Below are positions 6,580-26,568 of a DNA stretch of 64,000 bases, piece after piece. Within the stretch, counting starts at the first letter, position 1, and every line of letters begins with the position of its first letter. The position numbers and the translations under genes were made by a program. Origin of the DNA: an uncultured delta proteobacterium (lineage in GTDB: Bacteria; Desulfobacterota; Binatia; UBA9968). Where the stretch lies: assembly GCA_963755715.1 (NCBI GenBank), contig CAVWLW010000021.1, positions 1 to 64,000 of the forward strand, given 5' to 3'. Under the pieces are notes generated by a model. That model saw only the letters and a list, made by a program, of their open reading frames with translations, had not been told where the DNA came from and searched no databases.

Positions 6580-6723
6580 CGCTCGATTTGTATCCAGCGA
6601 CCTGGATAAAAGCAATCTGAGACAAACTCCCCGTCGGCGAACTATTTTGTCCAATTCTGTTGCCGAAGAGTGCCGATTTAGCGGATCAGGTTTTCAAAAA
6701 ATTCCCGATATAGCGAATAATAG

Positions 6724-6739
6724 TGACAAATTCATGTCA
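6724..6739. promoter_or_regulatory. Inverted repeat TGACA-N6-TGTCA, candidate transcription-factor site in the priA / HTH-pilM divergent region
   Basis: tgacaaattcatgtca in an AT-rich intergenic region, about 20 bp upstream of a sigma54-like element. Confidence 0.4.
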
Positions 6740-6757
6740 GCAAGGAATTACACCGTT

Positions 6758-6773
6758 TGGCAACTACTTTGCT
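6758..6773 (+). promoter_or_regulatory. Putative sigma54 (-24/-12) promoter for HTH-pilMNOPQ
   Basis: TGGCAA-CTACT-TTGCT: GG (6759-60) and GC (6771-72) at the spacing of consensus TGGCAC-N5-TTGCW. Confidence 0.55.
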
Positions 6774-6907
6774 TTAATAGCGCCACCAAATGTCATAATT
6801 AGGTATAATTGCGCACAATTTTATTTTGACGCTTGGAATCCTTAATTGATTAAAAAAATCAAACCCTTACGCACTCCTAGGTCCTTCCATAGGAGGGACT
6901 AGCGGCG

Positions 6908-7108
6908 ATGGATCAGGAAAACAACGTCAAGAAGCTGCGCGAAGCGAAAATGTTGAGCAAGACCGAGCTCGCGCGCTTGGCCGGCATATCTCCTTTGACC
7001 CTCGATCGCATTGAGAAAGGCAAAGCTTGCCGCATGGCGACCAAACGGAAAATCCTTTTCGCTCTCGGTTTAACCATCGAACAAAAGCAGACGCTTTTTG
7101 AGCAATGA
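6908..7108 (+). CDS. XRE/Cro-family helix-turn-helix protein
   Basis: LREAKMLSKTELARLAGISPLTLDRIEKG; RBS AGGAGG; first gene of the pil operon. Confidence 0.88.
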   Translation: MDQENNVKKLREAKMLSKTELARLAGISPLTLDRIEKGKACRMATKRKILFALGLTIEQKQTLFEQ

Positions 7109-7112
7109 ATTC

Positions 7113-8213
7113 ATGTTTTCATTTTTGAAAAACGTTAACTTGGGATTTTTGAATCCTTTAGGCGCAGGCGACGATTACGTCGCTCTCGATATCGGCTCCA
7201 GTTCCATCAAGCTGGTGGAAACGGTCGTCGATAAGAACGGCTATCGCGTTCTGAGTCTCGGCATCTTGCCGCTGCCGGAGTACGCTATCCAAAACAACAT
7301 GGTTGTGGACTCGAAACCGGTGGTGGAAATTATTCGCAAGTTGATTCACGAAAACGGGGTCAAATCCAAACAGGTCATCTCCGCAGTTCCCGGCCGGGCG
7401 GTGATTATGAAGAAAGTGCAAATGCCCAAACAGGAGCCGGCGGAACTCGAAGCGAATATCGAGTTTGAGGCGCAGAACGTTATTCCCGAGAATTTAGAAA
7501 ACGTCAATCTCGATCATCAGGTTTTGCAAGAGGCGGAAGACGGCAACAAGATGGACGTGCTTTTGGTCGCCGTCAAGAAGGAAATCGTCAACAGCTATGC
7601 CGACGCGATCCAAGAAGCGGGGCTAATGCCGACCGTGATGGACGTCGACTACTTCGCATTGGAAAATATGTACGAAGCCAATTACGCCGGTGAAAGCGAG
7701 AACGGCGTGGTCGGAATCATTCATATCGGCGCGCAATACACCAGCATTACGCTATTGCAAAACGGTATTTCCACGTTCACCGGCGATCTTTCACTCGGTG
7801 GAGCTTATTTCACCGACAGCCTTGCCAAGCAACTGGGCGTGTCCGTTGAAGCCGCCGAGACATTCAAAGCAACCGGGATGCTCGACGGCAAGAAAGGCTT
7901 GGACCTCGATGCGACCCTGCGTTCGACAACTGAAGAATTGGCCGAGGAGATCAGGAGAACCGTGAGTCTCTACGGGGCGGTCCCATCCGAGGACGGCGAC
8001 GGGCTCAAAATGATTTTTCTCAGCGGTGGCGGCGCGAAACTCGCCGGTCTGCGAATCCTACTCGAAGAGCGCATGGGCGTGCCGGTGCGGCTAAGCGAGC
8101 CGTTTCGTGGTTTTAACGTCAGTAAGAACATCGATCGCGATTACCTCCTCGACGCGGCGCCATATTTTGCGGTGGGAGCGGGATTATCGATCCGTCGGCC
8201 GGGGGATAAATGA
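7113..8213 (+). CDS. pilM: Type IV pilus assembly protein PilM
   Basis: Actin-like LDIGSSSIK, VLLVAVKK, LSGGGAKL, AVGAGL; start set to ATG 7113. Confidence 0.93.
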   Translation: MFSFLKNVNLGFLNPLGAGDDYVALDIGSSSIKLVETVVDKNGYRVLSLGILPLPEYAIQNNMVVDSKPVVEIIRKLIHENGVKSKQVISAVPGRAVIMKKVQMPKQEPAELEANIEFEAQNVIPENLENVNLDHQVLQEAEDGNKMDVLLVAVKKEIVNSYADAIQEAGLMPTVMDVDYFALENMYEANYAGESENGVVGIIHIGAQYTSITLLQNGISTFTGDLSLGGAYFTDSLAKQLGVSVEAAETFKATGMLDGKKGLDLDATLRSTTEELAEEIRRTVSLYGAVPSEDGDGLKMIFLSGGGAKLAGLRILLEERMGVPVRLSEPFRGFNVSKNIDRDYLLDAAPYFAVGAGLSIRRPGDK

Positions 8214-12683: not shown

Positions 12684-13882
12684 ATGTTGCGCTACTTCAC
12701 GGCTGGGGAGTCCCACGGCCCCTGTTTGACGATGATCATCGACGGCGTGCCGGCGGGATTTGCCATTCAAATCGACAAAATCAATCACGATCTTTGGCGC
12801 CGTCAGCAAGGTTACGGCCGTGGCGGGCGCATGCTTATCGAGAAAGATGAGGCACAGGTTCGTTCCGGGATTCGCTGGGGCGAAACCATTGGTGCCCCGG
12901 TCGCTTTGGGAATCGAGAACCGTGACTGGAAAAACTGGACAAAGAAAATGTCCGCCTCTGCCTGAAGATCGCGATGATAAAATCGCCGTCACCAAACCGC
13001 GTCCGGGACATGCCGACTTGAATGGCGCGCTCAAGTACGACCGTCGGGACGTTCGCGATATCCTGGAACGCGCTAGTGCGCGGGAAACGGTGGCGCGCAC
13101 CGCCGTCGGGTCTTTTGCCAAACAACTGCTGGCGCCGTTCGGCGTTCGCGTCATGGGTTACATTCGCTCCATCGGCAACGTCGCGGCGAATTTGCAAGAT
13201 CTTACTTTCGATGAAATCTACGCGCGTTCGGAAGAGTCGGCGGTTCGAACCGCCGATCCCGCAGCCGAAGAAAAGATGATCGCCTTGATCGAAGAGTGCA
13301 AGAAAGAAGGCAACACGCTCGGCGGTATCTTCGAAGTTGTCGTGCTCGGTTTGCCGCCCGGATTGGGTTCGCACACACAATGGGATCGCAAACTCGACGG
13401 ACGCTTGGCCCAAGCGCTGATGAGCATTCAAGCGATGAAAGGCGTCGAGATCGGTCTCGGCTTCGAGATGGCGCGGCGCCGCGGTTCGCAAGTGCATGAC
13501 GAAATTTTTTTCGATCCGACCAAGGATGTCACGGAAGGCACACCAAGAATCGTGCCCACGGGGTTTTATCGGGGTAGCAACAATTCCGGCGGCACCGAGG
13601 GCGGCATGACGAACGGCGCCCCGCTCATTGCCCGGGTCGCCATGAAGCCGATCTCGACTCTCATGAGTCCGTTACAGTCGGTGGATTTACGGACCAAGCA
13701 GCCTACCGATGCGTCCGTCGAGCGGTCCGATGTTTGCGCCGCTCCAGCCGCCGCCGTCGTCGGCGAATCCGTAGTCGCATTCGAGGTCGCCAAGGCATTT
13801 TCTGGAAAAATTCGGCGGCGACTCCTTGCGCGAAATCCGGCGCAACTATGAGCATTATTTAGAACAAATCAAAAATTATTAA
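12684..13882 (+). CDS. aroC: Chorismate synthase (two apparent +1 frameshifts at about 12955 and 13800)
   Basis: [12 protein letters not shown]...[12 protein letters not shown], then second frame [19 protein letters not shown], then third frame [17 protein letters not shown] to TAA 13880-82. Confidence 0.93.
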
Positions 13883-13886
13883 GCCG

Positions 13887-14441
13887 TTGTCGAAAACGCC
13901 GGTTCAAAACATCGCACTGATCGGCTTCATGGCCGTCGGAAAGAGTGCCATCGGGCGGAACTTAGCGAAGAGGCTGCATCGGCGCTTTGTCGATCTCGAC
14001 GCGCTGATTGAGAAAACCGAAGGGATGAAGGTGCGGGAAATCTTCGCACAAAAAGGCGAGAACTATTTTCGCCAACTGGAAAAGCGCGTGCTCGACGACG
14101 TATTGCGCCGGGAAGGGCAAGTTATCGCCACCGGCGGCGGCGTTGTGATGGACGATGAGAATCTCCATTGGCTGCGCGCGAGAGCATTGCTTGTCGGCCT
14201 GACCGCGTCGATCGATATTTTGTTGACCAGGGCCGGCACGGGAGCTAAACGCCCGTTGCTCCAGGGAGTCAATCGCAAAGAGCGCATCGAGACCTTGTTA
14301 AAGGAGCGCGAGCCGAGGTATGCACAAGCTCATGTGATCATCGACACGAGTGATTTAGTCATTGATCAAGTGGTGGGAAAAATCGTGGAAGCTCTCGGTT
14401 TAGAAAAAGAGCCACATGCAGACTCTAATCGTCAATCTTAG
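13887..14441 (+). CDS. aroK: Shikimate kinase
   Basis: LIGFMAVGKS P-loop, DLD, GENYFR, ATGGG, RPLL. Confidence 0.95.
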   Translation: MSKTPVQNIALIGFMAVGKSAIGRNLAKRLHRRFVDLDALIEKTEGMKVREIFAQKGENYFRQLEKRVLDDVLRREGQVIATGGGVVMDDENLHWLRARALLVGLTASIDILLTRAGTGAKRPLLQGVNRKERIETLLKEREPRYAQAHVIIDTSDLVIDQVVGKIVEALGLEKEPHADSNRQS

Positions 14442-15492
14442 CGACCGTTCGTATCCGATTCACGTCGGCGCCGAAATCATCGAGCGCGCCGGCCAACTGA
14501 TGCAGCAGGCGGGATTGCTCGGCAAGGTGGCCATCGTTACCAATCCCACGGTGGCGCAACTCTATCTCGACCCGATCCATGGAGCTTTGAGTCAAGCCGG
14601 ATTCGAAACGACGCCGGTCCTCCTGCCGGACGGCGAGGAGCACAAAACTCTCAAATCACTCTCGACCATTTACGATCGTTTAGTTGCCGAACGATTCGAA
14701 CGAAAGTCTTGCGTGCTGGCGCTCGGTGGCGGCGTGATCGGCGATCTCGCCGGCTTCGCCGCGGCGACTTATCTGCGCGGCATTCCTTATGTGCAAGTGC
14801 CGACGACTCTGCTCGCCCAGGTTGATTCCAGCGTCGGTGGCAAGACCGGCGTCAATCACGATGCAGGTAAGAATCTGATCGGTGCTTTTTACCAGCCTAA
14901 ATTGGTTTTGATCGATGTCGCGGCTTTGCGTTCGCTGCCGCGCCGAGAGCTCGTCGCCGGTCTCGCTGAAGTGATTAAATACGGTGTTATCTGCGACCGC
15001 TACTTGTTTGAGTTGCTCGAGCAAAATTTGGAAAAAATCCTCGCCCTGGACCGCGAGCTGCTCACCCAGATCATCGTCCGATCCTGTGAAAATAAAGTCC
15101 GCGTCGTCGAGGCCGACGAGCGCGAGGACGACTACCGGGCCGTGCTCAACTTTGGCCACACGATCGGTCACGCTTTAGAGGCCGCGACCGGCTACCGCCA
15201 ATTTCTGCATGGAGAAGCGGTGGGCATCGGCATGGTAAAAGCAGCTGCGCTTTCTGTGCAGCAGGGTTTTTGTGACCCGAAGAGCTTTGAGCGGATTACC
15301 AGGCTGATCAAAAAGGCAGGCCTGCCGACCGAGTTTCCTCCCGGTATGTCGGTGTCAAGTTTGGTTCAAGGCATGGAGGTCGACAAAAAAGCGACAGCCG
15401 GGCAGATCAAGTTTGTCATCTCGGAAGGTCTCGGCAAGACGCGTTTTCATTGGCTTGCGCCTGGCGAGATTTTAGACGCACTGGGTGGCTAG
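14416..15492 (+). CDS. aroB: 3-dehydroquinate synthase
   Basis: [40 protein letters not shown]. Confidence 0.96.
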
Positions 15493-15518
15493 TTTTTTCT
15501 GCCTGCAAAGGATTTTTC

Positions 15519-15962
15519 ATGGCGAAGAAAAAAATCCTCGTGCTGAACGGTCCCAATCTAAATCTTTTGGGCAAACGCCAGCCGGAGATTTACGGGACGT
15601 TGACGCTGGCACAAATCGAGCAGAGGATTCGCGCGCTTGCCAAGGAGCTCGGCATCGAAATCGAGGTGCGCCAGTCCAACAGCGAGGGCGAGCTGGTCAC
15701 CTGGATCCAAGAAGCCGCGAATAAGTTCGGCGCAATCGTGATCAATCCTGCCGCGTACACTCATACGAGCTTGGCGATGCGCGATGCGGTTTCAGCGGTC
15801 GGCATCCCCACCGTGGAGATTCACATTTCCAATATTCACAAGCGTGAGCCGTTCCGCCACCACTCCTTTATCGCCGAAGTTGCGGTTGGGCAAATTGCTG
15901 GATTTGGGGTGGACAGTTATCTGTTGGGGCTTCGCGCCGCGGCCGATTTAATCCAAGAATAG
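15519..15962 (+). CDS. aroQ: Type II 3-dehydroquinate dehydratase
   Basis: [34 protein letters not shown]. Confidence 0.96.
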
Positions 15963-16686
15963 CGAGCCGATCTCGAAATTTTTTGCTTTCATTTCCTCGA
16001 TGAGTTGCTGGCGCTCGTTCTCAGCTTGTGTTATCCGAGCTCGCATATCGCTCAGCTCCTTCTCCCTTTCGGTATAAGGGGGTGGCGGATCAATCGAAAA
16101 AGGGTGGCGTCTGAGACGCGCTGCCAGTGGGCAGTCCTTGCGCCTTATATTGAGCGTCGCGTAGACGCGACATCAAGTCGGCCTGCTGGCCTTTATATGC
16201 TTCTTCGGTGGTAAAGAAACTTGGCTCGGGGCCCTTGGTTCCGCGCGTAATCCAGGAGTACCGATCGCGTAATTCTTTGATCTCTGCGGTAAGCCCCTTC
16301 ACTTTATCCTCATACGCTTTTTGTTCCTCAGCTCTTTTCTTGGCTAGCTGTCCGTCTCCCGCAGATACCGAAGGCGGTTTTACTTCTGGGGCTTTGGTCG
16401 GTCTCGGCGGCGGCTCCGGTGCGACCGTCGTGGGAGCCTGATTCACACTGAGACTAGGCGAGCCGAGCCGGTCACCTTCTTCGGCGCGGCGAATGGTTTG
16501 AACTTGGTCCTTACTTATAGCGATCTCGCCGCCGAGGCCGGAAAATTTGATCATTGAACCGTCGTCGCGATAACTCTGAACATGGATTTGCCGGCCATTT
16601 TTCAAGACCAGCAGGTATTGTGCTTGCGCCACACCTGCCCAGCTTATGACTCCCACAAGCATGACGATAAAATGCGGTCTAAACAT
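15948..16686 (-). CDS. Exported hypothetical protein with Pro-rich linker and coiled coils (apparent +1 frameshift near 16100)
   Basis: Signal peptide ending AQA; small beta domain (LVLKNGRQI); removing one T from the T5 run extends the ORF by [49 protein letters not shown] to TAA at 15948. Confidence 0.65.
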
Positions 16687-16799: not shown

Positions 16800-18050
16800 A
16801 TGAACCTGTTTCGATTGTCGCTCGTTGTTTTTTGCGTGTTTCTTTTTGCCGTCAGCTTGGACAGTGTCGGCTTTGCCGAGCCCAAGGTGCAAATCCTCTC
16901 ACCCAAGGATGGCAGCCGCATCACCCAGGATCAGAAATCAATTTTTGTCAGCGGAAAAGTCGCGCGCGAGGCCGGTCGATCCGAAAGGGTCGACATTTTC
17001 CTCGTCATCGATATTTCCGGCAGCACCGCATTGTATGCCGGCGCGGATTTGGGCGAGGCCGATCAACCGCCGGAAACTTCCGGATTTCCCATGCCGCAGA
17101 TCTCGATCGGCGGCATGAGTCTCGGCAGGCCCCCGCTACGAAACCCGCGCAACTCGATCCTCGCCGCCGAAGTCGCCGCGGCGCGGCGATTGCTTCTTCA
17201 ACTCAATCGCGACACGACCCGGGTCGGTGTATTGACCTTCAGCGAAAACGCAAGATTGCTCCAACCACTGACCCAAGATTTCGATCAGGTGCGCCGCATT
17301 TTAACCGAGGTGCTGCGTGCGGGTCCTTACGGCGGCACCAACATGGTCGAAGGTATACGCATGGGGATCACCGAATTAATGGGATTGGGAACCAGCGAAA
17401 AGCGAACCGATGCGATCAAAGTGCAGTTTCTGCTGACCGACGGATTTCCATCATTGCCGATCGGCGGCGGTAAAAGAATGGCCCCCGAAGACATAGATTT
17501 AACGATCAACGCGGCGCGACTGTCCGGCAAAGCGGGTATCAAGGTTCATGTATTCGCTCTCGGCGACGAAGCTCTTTCCTATCCGCGCGCGGCGATGGGG
17601 ATCGCCAAAGAAAGCGGCGGCACTTATACGCCGGTGATGCGTCCGGCGGACGCGCTGGCGGTGCTCGAAAATATCTCCGTCGTTGGTGTTGATTATGTGC
17701 AAGTTGTCAATCAGACGATCGGGCAAAAGGCGACGCAGCTGCGGCTTGCCGCCGACGGATTTTTTTCCTCGGCGGTGCCGGTAGCGGAAGGTCGAAATCA
17801 GATTGATGTCTTGGCGCGCGCCAGCGACGGCACCAATAGCCGCGAGTCGATCACGGTTTACTACCAGCCCGGAACGCAAAAATCTTTGGAGTTGGAAGTA
17901 TTCCTGGAAAAAGAAAAAAACCTCCAACTGGAGGTTGACCGGCTCGGAAAAAGCTCAGCGGAAATCCAGCGCGAAGTCGAGCACAATCGTGAAGATACCC
18001 TCAGGCGGCCACAACAACTGCCGCCGCCGAGCGATGGACCGCCGAGATGA
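16800..18050 (+). CDS. Secreted von Willebrand factor A domain protein with flanking Ig-like segments
   Basis: Signal peptide; MIDAS DISGS, GGTN, LLTDG; flanking ILSPKDG and EGRNQIDVLA beta-sandwich-like segments. Confidence 0.85.
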   Translation: MNLFRLSLVVFCVFLFAVSLDSVGFAEPKVQILSPKDGSRITQDQKSIFVSGKVAREAGRSERVDIFLVIDISGSTALYAGADLGEADQPPETSGFPMPQISIGGMSLGRPPLRNPRNSILAAEVAAARRLLLQLNRDTTRVGVLTFSENARLLQPLTQDFDQVRRILTEVLRAGPYGGTNMVEGIRMGITELMGLGTSEKRTDAIKVQFLLTDGFPSLPIGGGKRMAPEDIDLTINAARLSGKAGIKVHVFALGDEALSYPRAAMGIAKESGGTYTPVMRPADALAVLENISVVGVDYVQVVNQTIGQKATQLRLAADGFFSSAVPVAEGRNQIDVLARASDGTNSRESITVYYQPGTQKSLELEVFLEKEKNLQLEVDRLGKSSAEIQREVEHNREDTLRRPQQLPPPSDGPPR

Positions 18051-18082
18051 GAGGATTGGTTTGAATCTCGACGCGGTGCAGG

Positions 18083-18508
18083 CTAGCGAACTTTTCTTTC
18101 CGCCTCCGCCGCGATGGCGATCTCCGAAGCGCCGGCGCGCTTGATGATCGACATCACTTTCACTGTGTCTCCCAATAAAACATCCTTATCGCCGCGGAGA
18201 ATCACGGTCTTGTCGGTGCGCGTGTTCAAGGCGTCCTGCAGGGTTTTTTCCAAAGCTTCTTCTTTGACGACTTTTTGATCGACAAAAATTTCATGCTTGG
18301 GTGTGATCGTCACGGTCGTGCCGCGCGATTCCGACTGGGTGGCGACGGCTTTCGGCAGGTTTATTTTGCCGCCTGACTCGATCATCGCCGAGCTCGTGAT
18401 CATGAAAATGATCAGCAACACGAGAAAGATATCGGTCAACGGCGTGATATTGATCTCCGCGACGATTTCAGAACTGTCGTCGTTGCCGCCGAGCGGGGTG
18501 ATCGCCAT
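18083..18508 (-). CDS. exbD: ExbD/TolR family protein
   Basis: EINITPLTDIFLVLLIIFMI, INLPKA, VILRGDK. Confidence 0.9.
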   Translation of the reverse strand: MAITPLGGNDDSSEIVAEINITPLTDIFLVLLIIFMITSSAMIESGGKINLPKAVATQSESRGTTVTITPKHEIFVDQKVVKEEALEKTLQDALNTRTDKTVILRGDKDVLLGDTVKVMSIIKRAGASEIAIAAEAERKVR

Positions 18509-18516
18509 GGAATTCC

Positions 18517-19143
18517 TCAGACGCTCATGTTCTGGACGATTTTGCCGACTTGAATGCGAAACAAGCCGTTGAGCGTCGAAATGCGCGTTTGAAAGTAGTT
18601 GTAAAAGATAACCGCGATGATCGCGACGGCCAATCCGAGCGCCGTCGCGACCAGCGCCTCGGAAATACCCGCTGCGACGACGGCGAAACCGCCGGTGCCG
18701 GCGATCGCCATGCTTTCGAACGATTTAATAATGCCGACAACGGTTCCGAGCAGGCCGATGAACGGCGCGCTGCTGGCGACCGTGCCGAGGATCCAGAGAT
18801 GTTTTTTCAGCTTCTGGTTTTCCTCGAACATCGCTTCGGCGGCGATGCTGTTGGCGACTTCCAGGCGGGCGCTCGCATCGCGTTCCAAGATGTTCAGAAA
18901 TATGCGGCCCGCCGGCGAGTGCGAGTTTTGCTTGCAGATCGCAATGGCCAGATCTCTTTGTCCTTTCTTAATCGGTTCGAGAATCGATTCCGTCACTCTC
19001 AGGGTGATCGCGCCAATATTTCTGAGCGACCATAAACGCTCAAACACGACCGCGACGCTGACGATCGACAGAAGAATCAATGGATAGGTGGCGATGGCGC
19101 CCTTGTGAATAATATCGATGAGATCGAGACCTTGCGGTTGCAT
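18517..19143 (-). CDS. exbB: MotA/TolQ/ExbB proton channel protein
   Basis: APFIGLLGTVVGII, VAAGISEALVATALGLAVAI. Confidence 0.9.
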   Translation of the reverse strand: MQPQGLDLIDIIHKGAIATYPLILLSIVSVAVVFERLWSLRNIGAITLRVTESILEPIKKGQRDLAIAICKQNSHSPAGRIFLNILERDASARLEVANSIAAEAMFEENQKLKKHLWILGTVASSAPFIGLLGTVVGIIKSFESMAIAGTGGFAVVAAGISEALVATALGLAVAIIAVIFYNYFQTRISTLNGLFRIQVGKIVQNMSV

Positions 19144-19237
19144 GACACGTCCTTCGTGCAGTTCGGATGATGATTACCTTAAATGAAAATTATTGCAATG
19201 AAACCGGATGCGGGTTTGTGATTCGCTATGAGGCTGC

Positions 19238-20263
19238 TTAGCCGCGCACGCCTATGGTGACGGTGAACTGCATGCGCAACGGAGTGTTGGCGAGATCTTT
19301 CAAGCTTTCCGGGATCGGCGGAAAAGGCGCGGCGCGCTTCATCGCTTCCACCGCGCTCGCGTTCAGTCTTGCATCGGTCGAGTCTAGAACTTCAGAGCGC
19401 ACAAGTCGGCCGGCTTTATCGAGTGTAAATAGCAGCGCAACTTTTTGTACTCCGGCGACGCCGTCGGGATATTTCCAGACTGACTCGACGCGTTTCTTCA
19501 GTTGACTGAGATATTGATTGTAATCGGCGCTCGACAAGCCCTTCAACCCGGTCGTGCTGCCGCCGCCGCTGCCCGCGCCCGTGCCGTTTCCCGCCAAGCC
19601 GCTTCCGCTCGGACTTCCGCCGGGGACGCCGTAAGGACCCGACCCCGTGCCAGTCCCTTTGAGCGCGCCGGGAATTTGCGCGCCTTCTTTCAGCCCTTTG
19701 ATGCCGGGTCCTTCGCCGGCGCCTTTGAGCGCAGCCAGAGTTTTTTGATTAGCTTCGAGATCGGCAGCGCTGCTTCCCGGTAGATGAGTCGGACTCTCTT
19801 TTGTCGGCAAGCGAACTAACGAGTCCACCGACGTCTCTTTCACGTTCACCGACTCGGAGTGTTGATCAGCGGCCAAAACTTTTGGACCGGGCAATGTCAC
19901 CGGCTTGGGCGCGGGAGCGGCTTCAACCGGGCTGCTGCTCGGAACTGAAGTTTCGCTTGAACCGCTGTCCAATTTGCCGCTTCGTTGGGTCGGTGGCGTC
20001 GGTGTACCGAGCTTCGGCATGGTACGCGGCCCGCCGGGACCACTCCCCGCACCGATGCTCTTGTTTGAAGATCCGCCATCGCGAATTTCCAGCAACTGCA
20101 CCGAAATCGGCGTGTCCTCGGTCTTGGCGACCGGCAAGGTTACGGCGCGCAGCGCCAGCAAGAAGAGCATCGTGTGAAAGAGCACGGAGGGGATTAGAAA
20201 AGGGCTGCGCAAGAGCGAAACAAGACCTGCGTCGCCCCAATCAGAGGAAGTCGGCTCGACCAT
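19238..20263 (-). CDS. TonB/TolA family energy transducer
   Basis: N-terminal TM with S-x3-H (SVLFH), Pro/Gly-rich linker, TonB_C/TolA-type C-terminus (LNASAVEAMKRAAPFPPIP). Confidence 0.85.
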   Translation of the reverse strand: MVEPTSSDWGDAGLVSLLRSPFLIPSVLFHTMLFLLALRAVTLPVAKTEDTPISVQLLEIRDGGSSNKSIGAGSGPGGPRTMPKLGTPTPPTQRSGKLDSGSSETSVPSSSPVEAAPAPKPVTLPGPKVLAADQHSESVNVKETSVDSLVRLPTKESPTHLPGSSAADLEANQKTLAALKGAGEGPGIKGLKEGAQIPGALKGTGTGSGPYGVPGGSPSGSGLAGNGTGAGSGGGSTTGLKGLSSADYNQYLSQLKKRVESVWKYPDGVAGVQKVALLFTLDKAGRLVRSEVLDSTDARLNASAVEAMKRAAPFPPIPESLKDLANTPLRMQFTVTIGVRG

Positions 20264-20264
20264 T

Positions 20265-21434
20265 TCAGCTTCCTGGCAAGGATATTTTTGTTATCTCGGT
20301 AGCCGGCGCGGGAAGCTGTTCTTTCTTGGAGAGGATTTCTAACCCGGCGGCACTGACGTCGCGGCGAACCAGGCGCCCGTTCTCATAGTAAGACCACAAA
20401 TCTGCGATACCATCACCGTTGAGGTCGCGCTCCTCTTTGAGCACGATCTCCCCGTCGGCGCTCGTGTCATAATAGATCCACAGATCGGCTCGGCCGCTTG
20501 CGCTTGTGTCCTTTTCGACCTTGGCGAGGCGTCCGTTTTGGTAGATCGCCCGATAGGTCATGCTTCCCTGTCCGGTTTCGTCGCGGTCCTCGCGAACGAG
20601 CTTATCGTTGTCATAAAAATAGATGGTGTCCGGCCGACCGATTTGCTTGGTATCGATTTCTCGCCGGACCATTTTGCCATCTTTGAAATAGCTCCAGGTG
20701 TCGACGCGGCCATCGCCCTTGGTCGACTCTTCTTGACGGATCACTTCACCTGGTTTTTGCGGATTGTAATAAATCCAAAGGTCCGGCACGCCGTCGCCGT
20801 TGATGTCCCTAATTTCGACGTTTTTGAATGGGCTTGGCGCGGTCTGGTTGTTGGGTGGTTTGCTCAAAGAAGCCAGATTTTCGCCGCTCTTGTTTTGAGA
20901 GCCGGTTGCTCTTGGCGGCGTTTCAGCTGGCGGCGGAGCTGATAAGGGCTTTTGCGTTTGACTCGGCGTCCCGGCAGCCGAGACGGGTTGGATTGCAGAT
21001 TCGCCGCCGGCCGGCGTTGTCGTTGCGCTCGCCACTTGATTTTCTAGGTCCCTCTGGTGCGCCAGCTCCTGCTCGATGGCGGCTTCAAGTTGTTGGTCTT
21101 TTTTTTGTTCGGTATAAATCTGGTTGTTGATTTGCCCATAATGTGAGTCGGCGGTGATCAAGCCGGTAATCAAACCAATAATCAATCCACCGCCTGCACC
21201 GTAGGGGCCGCCGATAGAGCCGCCCATGGCAATGCCTTCCATGGCTTTGCTCCAGGCGTGTTGCCAGCGTTGTGAGCTGCTGACCGCTGGTGGTGGTTGC
21301 GGCGCTGGGGAAGGAGTATTCGAATTGGGATAAGGGTATTGCGCGGAACTTGGTGGGTATTGCACCGCCACGGGATCGCAACCGCAAATTGCGCTCAAAA
21401 ACGCCAGCCCGAATAATCCCAATCGCTGTTTCAT
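20265..21434 (-). CDS. Lipoprotein with glycine-zipper-like segment and six DxxGDG..W.YY repeats
   Basis: Lipobox-like ICG-C; GIAMGGSIGGPYGAGGGLIIGLITG; coiled coil; six 24-28 aa repeats from DINGDGVPDLWIYY to DLNGDGIADLWSYY. Confidence 0.75.
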   Translation of the reverse strand: MKQRLGLFGLAFLSAICGCDPVAVQYPPSSAQYPYPNSNTPSPAPQPPPAVSSSQRWQHAWSKAMEGIAMGGSIGGPYGAGGGLIIGLITGLITADSHYGQINNQIYTEQKKDQQLEAAIEQELAHQRDLENQVASATTTPAGGESAIQPVSAAGTPSQTQKPLSAPPPAETPPRATGSQNKSGENLASLSKPPNNQTAPSPFKNVEIRDINGDGVPDLWIYYNPQKPGEVIRQEESTKGDGRVDTWSYFKDGKMVRREIDTKQIGRPDTIYFYDNDKLVREDRDETGQGSMTYRAIYQNGRLAKVEKDTSASGRADLWIYYDTSADGEIVLKEERDLNGDGIADLWSYYENGRLVRRDVSAAGLEILSKKEQLPAPATEITKISLPGS

Positions 21435-21466
21435 CCCTCATCCTATGCCAAGGGGCAAAGCTTACT

Positions 21467-22690
21467 TTATTCCGGGCCGGACTCCAACCCCAAAATGGCC
21501 GCCGTTGCCGGCTGCGCGCCGACCATCGCCGCGCCCTCCATAATATTGCGCCGTTCGTCTTCGACCCGCGCGAACGGCGCGGAAACGCGCGGTGGCTCGG
21601 CATTTTCCAATTGCTCCTGGCTGATGACTTGATCGCCCTTGAAGACGTAGCGCGCGGTGATTTTACCCTGATACTTCTGGTCTTCGAGTTGCTCCACCTT
21701 CTCACCGTTGCGGAAATTTACCCAGACATCGACCTTGTGATCGCCGTTCGTGTCGACTTCCTGGGCGATGATCTGGCCCTTTTCGTAGATCGTTCTGAAA
21801 TCAAACAGACCATCTCCCTTGGTGTCGCGTTCTTCGCGGACGAGTTGATTATCCTGAAAATAGGCAACGGTGTCCCACTTGCCGTTTCCCTTGGTGTCGC
21901 GCAGACGTTTTGTCAATCGACCTTGAGAGAAAATTTCAATCATGTCCAAGCGACCACGGTGCGCGGTATCTTCCTCCCGGCGCACGACTTCGTCACCACG
22001 GAAATAGACGCTTCGGCCGACTTTGCCGTCGCCATGCAAATCTTCGTCTTGTCTAACCAGGCGACCATCTTGATAGTGCCCCCAAAGATCGATCTTGCCG
22101 ATGTGTTTGCGGTCCAGCTCCTTGCGCACCAACTGGCCATTTTCGAAATAGGAAAAACTATCGGGCTTGCCATCGCCGTCGGTATCTTCTTCAATCCGGC
22201 TAATCTTGCCGTCTTTGTAGAAGACGCGTCGGTTTGCGGCGCCGCCCGCTTTGGCGGTCTCCTCGCTGCGCACCGGTTGGCCGTTTTCATAGTAGATCCA
22301 GAGAGTCGGTTTCCCCGAGCGCTCGGTGTCTTGGCCCTTGCGTTCGATTTCTCCCTTGGCGTTCAAGTAGAGCCACGTATCGAATTGGCCGTCATTCTTA
22401 CTGGCAATTTCCTGACGCGCCGGCTTGCCGGCCTCGTAATAAATCACGATGTCGGCTTTGCCGTCAAAATTGACGTCCTGCTCGATGCGCTCGGTTTTCC
22501 CCTGGGCATCGTAATAAATCCAGCGGTCCATCTTGCCGTCGCCATTGGTGTCTTGCGCCTGGCGAATCACATTGCCGCGATCGTCATAATAAAAGCTGGC
22601 GATGGGCTGTTGGGAATGTGTTTGTGACGGTAGAGCAAGGAGCCAGAGCGCCGCAAAAACCAGCCAGCCCGCTTTTACTCGGTCATTCAT
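21467..22690 (-). CDS. Exported protein of about 13 tandem 24-25 aa DxxGDG..W.YY..G..R.E repeats
   Basis: Signal peptide from ATG 22690; repeats such as DTNGDGKMDRWIYYDAQGKTERIEQ and DTDGDGKPDSFSYFENGQLVRKEL. Confidence 0.8.
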   Translation of the reverse strand: MNDRVKAGWLVFAALWLLALPSQTHSQQPIASFYYDDRGNVIRQAQDTNGDGKMDRWIYYDAQGKTERIEQDVNFDGKADIVIYYEAGKPARQEIASKNDGQFDTWLYLNAKGEIERKGQDTERSGKPTLWIYYENGQPVRSEETAKAGGAANRRVFYKDGKISRIEEDTDGDGKPDSFSYFENGQLVRKELDRKHIGKIDLWGHYQDGRLVRQDEDLHGDGKVGRSVYFRGDEVVRREEDTAHRGRLDMIEIFSQGRLTKRLRDTKGNGKWDTVAYFQDNQLVREERDTKGDGLFDFRTIYEKGQIIAQEVDTNGDHKVDVWVNFRNGEKVEQLEDQKYQGKITARYVFKGDQVISQEQLENAEPPRVSAPFARVEDERRNIMEGAAMVGAQPATAAILGLESGPE

Positions 22691-22727
22691 CGCTCGCCTA
22701 GAGTCGCGCAGCGCGAGACGAATCGAA

Positions 22728-22931
22728 TCAGGACTTGTTTGTATCGTGGGCGTCGTTTGATGACGGCGCACTATCGATGGGAGTCTTATCCGGCTCGTTG
22801 ACCGCTTTTTTGAAGCCACGGATAGCTTCGCCGAGCGATTTGCCGAATTCCGGGAGTTTGCTTGGACCGAATACGATCAGAGCGACGATAAATATGACGA
22901 TCAGCTCCGGAGCGCCGAGACTTCCTAACAT
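22728..22931 (-). CDS. tatA: Twin-arginine translocase TatA/TatE subunit
   Basis: MLGSLGAPELIVIFIVALIVFGPSKLPEFGKSLGEAIRGFKKA; RBS GGAGG upstream of ATG 22931. Confidence 0.93.
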   Translation of the reverse strand: MLGSLGAPELIVIFIVALIVFGPSKLPEFGKSLGEAIRGFKKAVNEPDKTPIDSAPSSNDAHDTNKS

Positions 22932-23166: not shown

Positions 23167-24913
23167 ATGAACACCGCCGAGAAAATCGAAGCTTCGTCCC
23201 TCGATCCACGTACTGCTGCAATCAGCAGAGCGTTGGCTAGCTTGGCTCTTGGCAGCGGCGGTCGTGTTCTTCTTGTTTTATCAGCTTGGTGGTGCGCCTC
23301 TCTATGAGCCGGATGAAGGGCGCAATGCAGAGAAAGCGCGTGAAATTCTCGTGCTCAACGATTGGATCACACCGCATGAGAACTTCCATACCGTGCTTGA
23401 CAAGCCGGTGTTTTACTATTGGCTGGTGGCGCTCTCTTACAAACTTTTTGGTGTGTCCGAATGGTCCGCGCGGCTGCCCTCCGCGCTGGCGGCCATGGCT
23501 TGCGCCTGGTTGGTTTTTTACTTCGCCCGCGCACGCTGGGGCCGCTGGGAGGCATTCTGGGCTGTGCTCATTTTGCTGACCAGCACTGAATTTTTCCTGC
23601 TTGGTCGAATCGTAATCTTCGATATGACGTTGACGTTTTGTCAGACCCTTGCTTTGGCGTCTTTCTATGAAGCGGCTCACACCGACGGCACGGTCCGGCG
23701 AAGAATTTTCTGTACAATGATGTATCTCGCCCTCGGAGCGGGGACGCTGATCAAAGGTCTTATCGGAGTGGTCATCCCGGGAATGGTGATCTTTTTTTAT
23801 ATGCTGCTAGGAAAGCGTTGGGAGATTTTACGGCGCATCTATTTTATTCCCGGCGTTTTGTTGTTTTTTGCGGTGGTTTTGCCGTGGTATCTCCAAGCTA
23901 ACGCGCGCAATCCCGGTTTTCTCAGTTATTACATTTGGCAAGAGCATTTCGGCCGCTATGCCACCGTCGACTTCGACCGTTCCGAGCCCTGGTATTATTT
24001 TATTGTCGTCGGTTTACTCGGATTTTTCCCCTGGACTTTCGTTTTGCCCATCGTGGCCAAAGATTATTGGAAAAAAACCTTGGATGACAAAACGCTTTTC
24101 CTCATCCTCTGGCTGGTTCTGCCGTTCTTGTTTTTCTCTGTTTCGAAATCCAAACTACCTCACTATATACTGCCGATATTTCCCGCCTTGGCAATCTTGA
24201 CCGCCGCCACCCTGGTTCGGCTGTACCGGCAATCCGAATCGAAGTTGCGTTTCGCCTTAGCACTCGGGTGGTTAATGCAAATCTTAAACACGGTCTATTT
24301 GGCCGCCGGAACGATTTTTCCCTCGATTCTCCCGAGCCACGTTCGCGAGAGCGTCAATGGCCTAGCCTCCTTTATTTGGTTTTATGTGCTTTTCTCGGTG
24401 CTAATGCTTGGCTACATGATCATTTCCAGGGCGGACGGGGCGGAACGACAGCGGACGCTTTTTCTGGTTCACGGTTTGAGTATGTGCGTCTTTTTGGTTT
24501 TTTTAACGCGCATGGTGATTGCGATTGCGCCGACCCGTTCCGCGCAGGCGCTTGCCGAGCAAGTGCGATCCCAACTCACCACCACGACTCAGGTCGTATT
24601 TTTCGATACCTATTTGGCGGGGATGCCGTTCTACTTACAGACCGAGCGGCCGATTTGGTTTGTTACCCATACCAACAAGAGACGCACTTTTCTGGGAAAT
24701 TATTTTGCGATGAACAAACGAGCTGAGCCGCGGATGCCGTGGGGAAAAGCCGTCCTGGATTTCGCCGAGTTCCGCGCGCGTTGGTACACTGCGACGCAAC
24801 CCCTGTTGGTCATTTTGAAAGAAAAAAACCTGCCGCGAATGGCACAGGAAGTGGGGCAAATGCCGAAGCGCGTCGCTGGCGTCGATGAATACGTCTTGGT
24901 TTTAAAACAGTGA
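23167..24913 (+). CDS. ArnT/PMT-family (GT-C) membrane glycosyltransferase (probable +1 frameshift near 23200)
   Basis: PDEGRNAE, DKPVFYYW, EWSARLPSA, IKG, PWY, SKSKLPHYILPIFP; the upstream ATG 23167 joins the main frame if one C is removed. Confidence 0.85.
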
Positions 24914-24983
24914 GAGAAAAAACGTTCACTCGGCGGATGAAACGCCGCCGTGATTGTGCCGAATCGGGTCGCAGAGCTTGACT

Positions 24984-25808
24984 ATGAATAGTTGGATTGT
25001 CGCGGTTATTCTGGGCATCGTCGAAGGTCTCACCGAGTTCCTGCCGGTTTCTTCCACGGGTCATTTGATCGTTGTTGGATCTCTGCTTGGGTTTGTCGGC
25101 GAGAGGGCGGCGAGTTTCGAGGTGGTCATTCAACTCGGCGCAATCCTTTCGGTCGTTCTGTTGTACTGGCGCCGGTTTGTTCGACTGATTCCGGCGCGCC
25201 GCCGATCCCTCCTCGGCGCTCGATCCACCCTGGACGGATGGGCCGGGCTTTGGCGCATCGGGTTCGCGACAGCGCCGGCGTTGCTGGTCGGTTATCTAGC
25301 ACGGCACGCGATAAAAGAGCGACTGTTTAATCCTGAGGCAGTGACATTGGCGCTGGCGGCCGGCGGTATAGCGATCCTGCTGGCGGAGCGCTATGGCTCT
25401 CGCCGCAGCACCAACACGCTCGATACGCTCACGCTCGGGCAAGCCGTCGGTGTCGGCTTCTTTCAAGTGCTATCGCTCTGGCCCGGCACGTCGCGGGCCG
25501 CCGCGACGATCGTCGGCGGCATGCTGCTTGGTTTGGAACGGAAAAGCGCGGCGGAATTCTCGTTTCTCATTGCCGTGCCGGTTATGTTTGCCGCGACCGG
25601 TTATGAGCTGATCAAGATGCGCGACCAAATGGCTTTTGCAGATTCTCTGCAGCTCGCTGTCGGATTTGTCATTTCATTTGTAGTGGCGTTGATTGCCGTG
25701 AAGGGGTTTATCAGCTTTCTTCAGCGCGGTAAGCTCACGCCGTTTGCCTGGTATCGAATCATCGCCGCGCTGGGTTTCTATTTTCTCACCCGCGGTTCGA
25801 GCTTCTAA
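24984..25808 (+). CDS. uppP: Undecaprenyl-diphosphate phosphatase BacA/UppP
   Basis: GIVEGLTEFLPVSSTGH, IQLGAIL, PGTSRA, AAEFSFL. Confidence 0.95.
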   Translation: MNSWIVAVILGIVEGLTEFLPVSSTGHLIVVGSLLGFVGERAASFEVVIQLGAILSVVLLYWRRFVRLIPARRRSLLGARSTLDGWAGLWRIGFATAPALLVGYLARHAIKERLFNPEAVTLALAAGGIAILLAERYGSRRSTNTLDTLTLGQAVGVGFFQVLSLWPGTSRAAATIVGGMLLGLERKSAAEFSFLIAVPVMFAATGYELIKMRDQMAFADSLQLAVGFVISFVVALIAVKGFISFLQRGKLTPFAWYRIIAALGFYFLTRGSSF

Positions 25809-25836
25809 TAAAATATTATCGTCAGGACGCGACGGA

Positions 25837-26568
25837 CTATTTATGTTCGTGGCGGTGCTTGATCCATGCAAAGAGCTGGTTTCGGTAGTAATACGCGGCC
25901 CCTAACGCGACGATTGAGCCAAGCGCGAGCAGGATAAACGTGTGGTACTCTTCGTTTCGAATCGTCGCGCCCTGCATGGTCAGAAGGTAGGTTCCCGGTA
26001 GCCGTCCGATGATTGACACAATCAGAAAGGTGCCGAGCTTCATTCGACTCAGCCCGAGAACATAACAGAGATAATCCTTGGGAAACCCGGGAAAAAGAAA
26101 CAGCACGAAGCAAATCAATGTGCCGGTCTTGGTCGTGAGAAAATTGAACTTCTCCAAAACTTCGCGCTTGACGAATCGCTCGACGAACGGCCGACCGAGA
26201 ATACTCGCTAGCTCAAAGGCGACCCAGGAACCTAAAGAAAGACCGATGGTCGAAAGCAAAAAGCCAAAAGTTTCGCCGTAGACATAGCCGCCCGCGACGC
26301 CTGTCAACTCGCCGGGAAAGGGCGCCGCGATCACCTGCAATACTTGCAAGAGCACGAAAACCGCGGGCGAGTAGGGCCCGAGATTTTGCAGAAATTTACT
26401 GAGTTTATCACTGCTCGAATATATTCCCTCGAAATCATCGAAGTCCTCGCCGGCCGGGGCAAAAGCACTGAAGGGCCGTGGAATATAACGGCTGAAAAAA
26501 AACAAGAGCACGATCAGGACAACAAAAATTAGACCCCGGATAGCCAGTTGACGACGCGGGTTGCTCAT
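25837..26568 (-). CDS. DedA/TVP38/TMEM64 family membrane protein
   Basis: LQVIAAPFPGE, GYVYG, LFPGFPKDYLCYVLGL, GRLPG. Confidence 0.88.
   Translation of the reverse strand: MSNPRRQLAIRGLIFVVLIVLLFFFSRYIPRPFSAFAPAGEDFDDFEGIYSSSDKLSKFLQNLGPYSPAVFVLLQVLQVIAAPFPGELTGVAGGYVYGETFGFLLSTIGLSLGSWVAFELASILGRPFVERFVKREVLEKFNFLTTKTGTLICFVLFLFPGFPKDYLCYVLGLSRMKLGTFLIVSIIGRLPGTYLLTMQGATIRNEEYHTFILLALGSIVALGAAYYYRNQLFAWIKHRHEHK

Follow-up and report, generated by a model that had tools for sequence, protein, structure and literature searches.

The 64,000-nucleotide stretch analysed here (positions 1 to 64,000 of contig CAVWLW010000021.1 of an uncultured delta proteobacterium assigned to the Binatia; hereafter the window) carries a proton-channel motor of the ExbB-ExbD type and a TonB/TolA-type transducer together with two exported, paralogous proteins that are built from tandem β-hairpins and that we call ribbon proteins, i.e., the secreted Rep1 and the lipoprotein RepLipo. 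With an exported von Willebrand factor A (vWA) protein and a small exported protein, x226, they form a set of seven genes (x226, vWA, exbB, exbD, tonB-like, rep1 and repLipo) that is kept through rearrangement in two bacterial families. We see an about even chance that the proton-driven motor and its transducer operate with the two ribbon proteins as their periplasmic and outer-membrane partners.

Conservation of the Gene Set

Rep1 is present in 17 of 18 further genomes from the genus (the exception is 80% complete; one of the positive genomes, G005, is unpublished), in three of the five genomes of family f2 and in none of the seven of family f3. The gene order of the window is kept in five loci of the genus and in one locus of a second genus of the same family. 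The three f2 loci are arranged in another way: tonB, rep1 and repLipo share a strand, their stops and starts overlapping, and converge on vWA-exbB-exbD, where vWA immediately precedes exbB-exbD in the same orientation and x226 diverges from vWA. Identity between f2 and the window is 55–61% for the vWA protein, 43–53% for the ribbon proteins and about 30% for ExbB and ExbD. The linkage of the motor with both the vWA gene and the x226 gene, raised in the initial annotation, thus persists through the rearrangement between f1 and f2, and the repeat genes are conserved beside tonB-exbBD in the genus, in f2 and in more distant loci.

All 80 metagenome loci retrieved with the vWA protein as query fit the order of the window, and exbD follows in each of the 70 that extend beyond the vWA stop; at 73–99% identity these loci are at the level of the same genus, the search having returned close relatives only. 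A TonB-dependent transporter (TBDT) was found in none of these 80 loci and in none of nine orthologous genome loci. Contigs from RNA libraries of four soil runs in three studies (at least 95% identity) cover parts of every gene (X3: 29 of 30 bins), and single contigs span the tonB/repLipo, repLipo/rep1 and rep1/tatA junctions. The locus is present in these RNA libraries, in contigs that carry no strand or single-transcript information and may derive from DNA carry-over.

Gene Layout of the Locus

Six consecutive minus-strand genes, from tatA to exbD, are separated by 37, 32, 1, 94 and 8 bp, the 1-bp gap being that between the repLipo stop and the start of the tonB-like gene, while the vWA gene converges with exbD, leaving 32 bp between the two stops (Table 1). 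This layout, taken from the list of open reading frames (ORFs), agrees with the initial annotation, and so do the domain searches in that no TBDT, TolB or Pal is encoded in the window: the contig holds neither a TBDT nor an OmpA/Pal domain. The neighbouring small gene, which had been started at 15948, is to be replaced by the ORF listed for x226. The start of Rep1 was set at the signal peptide; a longer ORF extends to 22819. Scans for promoters and terminators gave numbers close to those for shuffled sequences (6 found versus 3.5 expected and 12 versus 10.6, respectively).

Table 1. Coordinates of the genes discussed, as positions in the window.
Feature	Position	Strand	Basis
TatA/E-family gene, 67 aa	22728-22931	minus	Pfam TatA_B_E 72.7 bits
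Rep1, secreted, 407 aa, β-hairpin ribbon	21467-22690	minus	AlphaFold2 model and period analysis
RepLipo, 389-aa lipoprotein	20265-21434	minus	alignment of 16 orthologues, AlphaFold2 model
TonB/TolA-type transducer, 341 aa	19238-20263	minus	PF13103, TIGR01352
ExbB/TolQ-type proton channel subunit, 208 aa	18517-19143	minus	PF01618 112 bits
ExbD/TolR-type subunit with transmembrane Asp, 141 aa	18083-18508	minus	PF02472 99.7 bits
Exported vWA protein, 423 aa	16779-18050	plus	VWA 40.6 bits, Glucodextran_B 33.5 bits
x226, small exported protein	16090-16686 (or to 16770)	minus, divergent from vWA gene	

On the x226 side the set is bordered by a plus-strand run of shikimate-pathway genes (12760-15962), in which aroB and aroQ were identified by BLAST comparison among relatives and the ORFs preceding them resemble aroC and aroK by eye; the aroB/aroQ flank adjoins x226 in f1 and f2 alike. 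On the other side (23249-26568) lie a glycosyltransferase of the ArnT/PMT_2 type (NF009784, 222 bits, below the cut-off) and, as judged by eye, UppP- and DedA-like ORFs, a trio that flanks Rep1/TatA within the genus but not in f2. A plus-strand ORF of 445 residues (21290-22627) runs antisense to Rep1, and similar antisense ORFs overlie ribbon genes in loci L026 and L032; such long antisense ORFs are probably an effect of the repeat composition.

The Ribbon Proteins

The 24-residue repeat that had been noticed in both exported proteins is well established for Rep1, whose self-identity is 0.217 at a lag of 24 residues and 0.255 at a lag of 48; 1000 shuffled sequences reached no more than 0.128. 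Since the value at lag 48 exceeds that at lag 24, the evolutionary unit may be a pair of hairpins. For RepLipo the periodicity is weaker (0.174 at lag 24; shuffle mean 0.118, maximum 0.192), and its repeat region matches Rep1 at E = 1e-24. The AlphaFold2 (AF2) model of Rep1, made from a 40-row alignment, has a predicted local distance difference test (pLDDT) score of 89.3 and a predicted template modelling (pTM) score of 0.75 and consists of a signal helix, 28 strands that form 14 hairpins with a period of 24 residues, and a helix at the C-terminus. Its Foldseek matches are confined to Rhs/YD shells, teneurins and engineered OspA single-layer sheets, with E values down to 1.7e-10 and TM-scores of 0.07–0.39, so that the likeness is one to hairpin-built sheets generally and to no known domain. 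All of these share with Rep1 a sheet of successive β-hairpins, whereas their global shape is different and Rep1 has no shell, toxin or plug domain.

Searches of Pfam and NCBIfam gave matches of the window ribbon proteins to MORN_2, FG-GAP and Lsa25.6 that were all below cut-off (MORN_2, 24.1 bits versus 29.6; Lsa25.6, 56.7 and 42.2 bits versus 150), and the cut-off of DUF6802 was reached solely by distant homologues such as P0007. The MORN_2/YwqK-like (PF07661), DUF6802 (PF20615) and Lsa25.6 (NF050087) families likewise consist of short β-hairpin repeats of 22–24 residues with a weak sequence match to the ribbons, but the window proteins stay below their curated cut-offs and no link of these families with TonB was found in the literature searched. 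Loops of the DxDxDG type are kept three times each in Rep1 and RepLipo, compared to a median of 16 in distant family members. With a signal peptide, tandem hairpins of 24 residues and genes that adjoin exbB-exbD-tonB, the window proteins belong to the ribbon partner family as we define it here.

RepLipo was correctly recognized as a lipoprotein from the outset: its lipobox cysteine (C19) is invariant in 16 orthologues. The same alignment reveals a conserved segment that starts at this cysteine (C-[DE]-P-V-x-V-Q-Y-P-P-G-S), which on reading may resemble a TonB or TolA box, and a conserved C-terminal tail. In the AF2 model (pLDDT 68 overall, ca. 90 in the ribbon) a signal helix and a disordered stretch are followed by two helices (residues 53-73 and 79-137), a disordered Pro-rich linker, about seven hairpins (strands at 205-360), a short helix and the tail. 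The two helices form a Gly-rich hairpin that continues into a coiled coil. The glycine-zipper-like segment of the initial annotation thus stands as a Gly-rich helical hairpin (pLDDT ca. 70) but not as a member of a known glycine-zipper family, for which there was no Pfam match; residues 45-140 gave no usable match in the protein atlas. RepLipo is presumably located in the outer membrane.

Motor and Transducer

Both motor subunits clearly exceed the cut-offs of their Pfam families (ExbB, PF01618, 112 bits versus 22.9; ExbD, PF02472, 99.7 versus 25.4), and the transmembrane (TM) Asp of ExbD lies in TPLTDIFLVLL. Their best-scoring equivalogs are TolQ (TIGR02796, 110.6 bits) and TolR (TIGR02801, 90.1 bits), both below the respective cut-offs of 221 and 127.3, and the scores for the ExbB and ExbD equivalogs are below their cut-offs as well (TIGR02797, 80.5 bits versus 206.2; TIGR02803, 63.7 versus 152.95). 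The transducer has an N-terminal TM helix in which S26 and H30 are nearly invariant among orthologues, a long Pro/Gly-rich linker with conserved linear motifs, and a C-terminus that passes PF13103 (TonB_2; 35 bits versus 22) and TIGR01352 (38 versus 27.1), with PF03544 (20 versus 24.6) and the TolA equivalog (25.7 versus 59.45) staying below cut-off.

The genome has three ExbD loci (PF02472). One, on contig C57, is a tolQ-tolR-tolA-tolB cluster with an OmpA-domain gene (pal) and one further gene; another, on C76, is a TBDT-tonB-exbB-exbD cluster; the third is the window locus, whose motor, given these separate Tol-Pal and TBDT/TonB/ExbBD clusters, is a third motor. The ExbD match on C76 ends an open frame of 430–446 residues that overlaps exbB in another frame, its N-terminal extension being probably spurious. 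Quick trees were made of ExbB alone and of concatenated ExbB and ExbD (38 rows), and in both the window motor forms a long-stemmed clade of its own, apart from the TolQR of the genome and from the ExbBD of C76. A grouping with the TBDT-linked ExbBD of the genome, which would have spoken for iron uptake, is thus not seen in these trees, and neither is one with the Tol-Pal TolQR. A split with 98% support in the Shimodaira–Hasegawa-like approximate likelihood ratio test (SH-aLRT) places the window motor and a small ribbon-linked clade (L104, L108, L109) on the side of TolQR, and the main ribbon-linked clade and the vWA-linked motor of f2 on the opposite side. In the quick tree of ExbB and ExbD, the motors that stand with ribbon genes fall into at least four separate clades.

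A complex was predicted between residues 118-341 of the TonB-like protein and both RepLipo (190-389; its N-terminus was left out) and Rep1 (28-407), with a separate alignment for every protein. The score was 0.54, while the best of three controls reached 0.28, which was also the score when Rep1 was replaced and the partner kept. At least 42% of contacts are common to the runs, the partner pLDDT is at least 62, and no interface is reported. The mark used for such scores is passed by 116 of 157 solved complexes and by 2 of 215 mismatched pairs; 18 of the 157 solved complexes and both passing mismatches lie at 0.60 or under. The contact between the C-terminal TonB domain and a repeat protein that had been envisaged is therefore weakly suggested, with a score in the weak band.

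The vWA Protein, x226 and TatA

The vWA protein is composed of a signal peptide, a small N-terminal β domain, the vWA domain, a Glucodextranase_B-like Ig domain, a coiled coil and a Pro-rich end. Its metal ion-dependent adhesion site (MIDAS) is intact, as had been read from the single sequence: D78, S80, S82, T187 and D221 do not vary among 10 orthologues. The N-terminus is like a signal peptide and has no lipobox, TM His or TM Asp, an Asp falling after the hydrophobic core, and the orthologues agree in this. Close homologues bear NCBI labels such as Candidatus Binatia bacterium. Two orthologues from genus g5 (L017:12787-14391 and L018:3685-5283) have an extra N-terminal SH3_3 domain (42.3 and 31.2 bits versus a cut-off of 27). 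Domains of this kind usually bind the cell wall, and their presence suggests, as far as sequence can tell, a periplasmic location or wall binding of the vWA protein.

The x226 protein consists of a signal peptide, a small β domain, a Pro-rich stretch and a coiled coil; domain searches gave sub-threshold matches only (DUF903/YgdI-like, EF-Tu D4). In f1 and f2, the x226 gene adjoins that of the vWA protein in all loci that are long enough to show it. TatA, which had been counted as a member of the operon, cannot be kept as such: the genome has three other TatA/B paralogues besides it, with the tatC genes on other contigs, and it is missing upstream of Rep1 in L019, L022, L023 and family f2, although 19 of the 25 metagenome loci extending past Rep1 do contain it. 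On reading, none of the exported proteins of the locus carries a twin-arginine signal. TatA is probably a neighbour and not part of the system.

Ribbon Genes in Desulfobacterota and Beyond

A match to Rep1 at E ≤ 1e-10 was found in 31 of 401 genomes drawn from the phylum (G000 included). The gene neighbourhoods of 99 ribbon loci were compared, namely 20 places from this draw and the best 80 of 336 confirmed stretches from a profile search, with L034 left out as a close relative; loci from the two sources overlap in at least five contigs and are not independent. Nearly all of these best 80 of the 336 stretches are labelled Desulfobacterales, Desulfobacteraceae, Syntrophobacteria, Thermodesulfobacteriota or Deltaproteobacteria. 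The ribbon gene lies directly upstream of exbB in 85 of the 99 loci, with a median gap of 42–58 bp; four others end at a contig edge and ten are non-adjacent, four of which have exbB-exbD-tonB elsewhere in the locus. BLAST clusters place ExbB in 89, ExbD in 86 and TonB in 82 of the loci. The distant ribbons are longer (median 594–596 residues), possess a signal peptide and are 25–33% identical to Rep1; canonical ribbons contain about 20% Asp and Glu. On the evidence of sequence and gene order, the ribbon would be a dedicated partner of Ton-type motors. In the literature searched (main texts, without supplements) no description of the ribbon family or of its link with these motors was found.

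The statement of the initial annotation that the system lacks a receptor holds for the window locus and its orthologues, but not for the wider family, as 58 of the 99 loci contain a TBDT, and the ribbon is, consequently, not a general replacement of the receptor.

Several members of the family deserve mention in their own right. One genome (G368) contains three separate ribbon-exbB-exbD(-tonB) sets (L131, L138, L141), which suggests that each ribbon is paired with its own cognate motor. In the long ribbons (L024-L123) the last 40 residues are the most conserved (VEEDTNGDGRPD.WEEYDESEALVKRS.DLDFDG.PDI in the A2 alignment); the Rep1 of the window has no such ending, which could be a docking site. 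P0102, which is labelled Candidatus Methylomirabilales, aligns colinearly with RepLipo over the whole span between the Gly-rich region and the last hairpin (E = 1e-28) and, by eye, also has a lipobox and a coiled coil, and TonB proteins labelled Methylomirabilota and Rokubacteria have the C-terminal domain type of the window transducer. In P0012 a DUF7133 domain (129.8 bits) is fused to a hairpin ribbon, so that ribbons occur in other architectures as well. A relation between the length of the ribbon and that of TonB, as would be expected of a molecular ruler, was considered and rejected (rho of only 0.24, with non-independent loci).

Function of the Ribbon-Motor Module

From the gene content, domains, folds and conservation described above we infer a working model of contacts, outer-membrane location, direction of force and physiological output. 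In this lineage, whose close relatives are labelled Candidatus Binatia by NCBI, a ribbon-motor module would operate without a linked TBDT. The ribbon gene would have been duplicated in the lineage of the window, and one copy would have gained a lipid anchor, the Gly-rich helical hairpin and a coiled coil, presumably placing it in the outer membrane, while the secreted, MIDAS-intact vWA protein and the small exported x226 would have joined the set. The motor would energise the TonB-like protein via its Ser/His TM helix, and the periplasmic part of this transducer would contact both ribbons, RepLipo being anchored in the outer membrane and Rep1 soluble. The result would be a trans-envelope link through which force is exerted on a ribbon/vWA assembly and not on a transporter plug, and the vWA protein may bridge to the acidic loops of the ribbons or to the cell wall. 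As physiological output we favour envelope tethering or upkeep of the outer membrane over nutrient uptake.

The module shares with the Ton system its MotA_ExbB subunit, an ExbD with a TM Asp, the Ser/His TM helix and a C-terminal domain of the TonB family, and the distant ribbon operons adjoin TBDTs. It differs in that the window locus and its orthologues lack a TBDT, stay below the ExbB/ExbD equivalog cut-offs and contain two ribbons, a vWA protein and x226 in addition. Formally, the layout is also like that of Tol-Pal (motor, transducer, soluble β protein in the periplasm and lipoprotein in the outer membrane), and TolQ and TolR provide the best-scoring equivalogs, but all Tol cut-offs are missed, Rep1 and RepLipo are not homologous to TolB and Pal, and an OmpA-type domain is absent. 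Proteins with a vWA domain that are syntenic with tolQR-like motors have been proposed as possible force transducers (PMC12204202, Mol Biol Evol 2025). According to the available part of that paper, they are tethered by a TonB-like helix with a His (SHLS) or by an ExbD-like helix with an Asp and replace TonB. The vWA protein of the window is likewise tied genetically to a TolQR-like motor, and in f2 stands within the motor operon, but has a cleavable-type signal peptide in place of such a tether and occurs beside a separate TonB-like protein, and so falls outside the definition given there. A hairpin-repeat partner does not appear in that available part, where “MORN” does not occur and the five occurrences of “repeat” refer to Pro or TPR repeats.

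The foremost alternative is an ordinary Ton system, in which the motor and the TonB-like protein energise TBDTs encoded elsewhere, the ribbons are accessory periplasmic subunits for uptake, in the manner of the operons of Desulfobacterales, and the vWA protein and x226 are unrelated or minor. We consider this somewhat unlikely, with substantial weight left to it because of the distant loci that hold a TBDT and of an orphan TonB-TBDT pair in the genome itself. The TBDT cluster occurs in 58 of the 99 ribbon loci (three members were checked with Pfam and have Plug and barrel), a DUF4198 gene in 26 and a corrin/porphyrin methylase gene (TP_methylase) in 22, and a DUF4198 protein is presented as a periplasmic zinc capture protein in the abstract of PMC12663993. 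The C-terminus of the window transducer passes TIGR01352, as noted above. The orphan pair (L003, G000:C1:80000-92000, 4403-7488) comprises a canonical TonB (TonB_C, 84 bits) beside a TBDT in two ORFs, with no ExbBD nearby, and could be served by the motor of the window. Part of the Plug of this TBDT is in an ORF of 329 residues and the barrel end in one of 231 residues, so the gene may be broken or the assembly in error. An ordinary Ton system is harder to reconcile with the lack of a TBDT in the 64-kb window and in the orthologous loci of genomes and metagenomes alike, with the fact that the genome has only two TBDT loci, one with a motor of its own and the other with its TBDT split in two ORFs, with the presence of vWA in a single operon with exbB-exbD in f2, and with the acquisition of a lipoprotein copy of the ribbon.

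The same TBDT, DUF4198 and cobalamin genes argue for nutrient uptake as the ancestral role of the ribbons and, like the orphan pair, weigh against the partnership that we propose for the window. Other observations count in the same direction. A full Tol-Pal system is already encoded in the genome, so that a second tether is not obviously needed, and RepLipo lacks a domain for binding peptidoglycan. All of the synteny seen within the genus may be due to common descent, leaving the rearrangement between f1 and f2 and the distant family as the independent evidence. The position of the window motor on the TolQR side comes from a quick tree in which long branches join, and the contact of TonB with the ribbons is a prediction in the weak band of scores. 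Finally, one sequence (P0008, a singleton on a 1.9-kb contig) joins a ribbon directly to a TonB_2 domain; it was examined as a Rosetta-stone fusion and rejected, since it has no second example (both halves are spanned by none of the 80 other matches), and it is a hint of adjacency only.

The ribbons might instead bind divalent metals in the periplasm, as buffers or chaperones that share regulation with uptake genes, without being structural partners of TonB. The many DxDxDG-type loops and the acidic composition of the canonical ribbons, as well as the abundance of metal-uptake genes in ribbon loci, agree with this, whereas the window ribbons have three such loops each, a coiled-coil lipoprotein copy is unlike a soluble buffer, and both the fixed site upstream of exbB and the paralogous sets of G368 look like those of cognate subunits. 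We regard such a role as improbable.

A further comparison is with the Agl-Glt gliding machinery of Myxococcus, which employs a TolQR-like motor, TonB_C-type proteins and the vWA adhesin CglB. The window set likewise combines a TolQR-like motor, a TonB_C-type protein and a vWA protein, a likeness that is drawn here as an analogy. By this analogy the motor would drive adhesion or gliding with the vWA protein as adhesin, and a role in gliding has been speculated for vWA proteins syntenic with tolQR-like motors in the available part of PMC12204202. The vWA protein of the window is, however, no lipoprotein and has a signal peptide without lipobox, TM His or TM Asp, the SH3_3 domain of some orthologues suggests the periplasm, and domain searches of the locus detected neither an outer-membrane β-barrel nor a Glt-like gene, which makes a surface machine of this type quite improbable. 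That the genes are neighbours by descent only, without shared function, is very improbable: f1 and f2 have the aroB/aroQ flank in common too, which shows that long-range synteny is kept in this bacterial order, but the set survives inversion and re-joining between these families and distant ribbon genes are tied to exbB in many families.

Implications

Ton and Tol-Pal are the textbook routes by which energy reaches the outer membrane of diderm bacteria, and their lists of subunits are thought to be complete. A more far-reaching form of our proposal is that the window encodes a third trans-envelope machine beside these two, driven by protons, in which a TonB-like transducer pulls on an outer-membrane ribbon lipoprotein and not on a transporter plug and, working with Rep1 and the vWA protein, tethers or remodels the outer membrane. 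The ribbon would then be an ancestral fourth subunit that has been overlooked in many motors of the Ton type, in Methylomirabilota and Binatia-labelled bacteria as well as in Desulfobacterota; we consider this conceivable but doubtful. The position of the ribbon gene upstream of exbB in 85 of 99 loci, together with the occurrence, among abundant soil bacteria, of a variant that has its own lipoprotein and a linked vWA protein, suggests that these motors have either a component that has been missed or an output that is new. Binding of TonB by the ribbon would bear on how force crosses the periplasm. The canonical operon of four genes beside metal transporters offers a simple genetic test in cultivable sulfate reducers.

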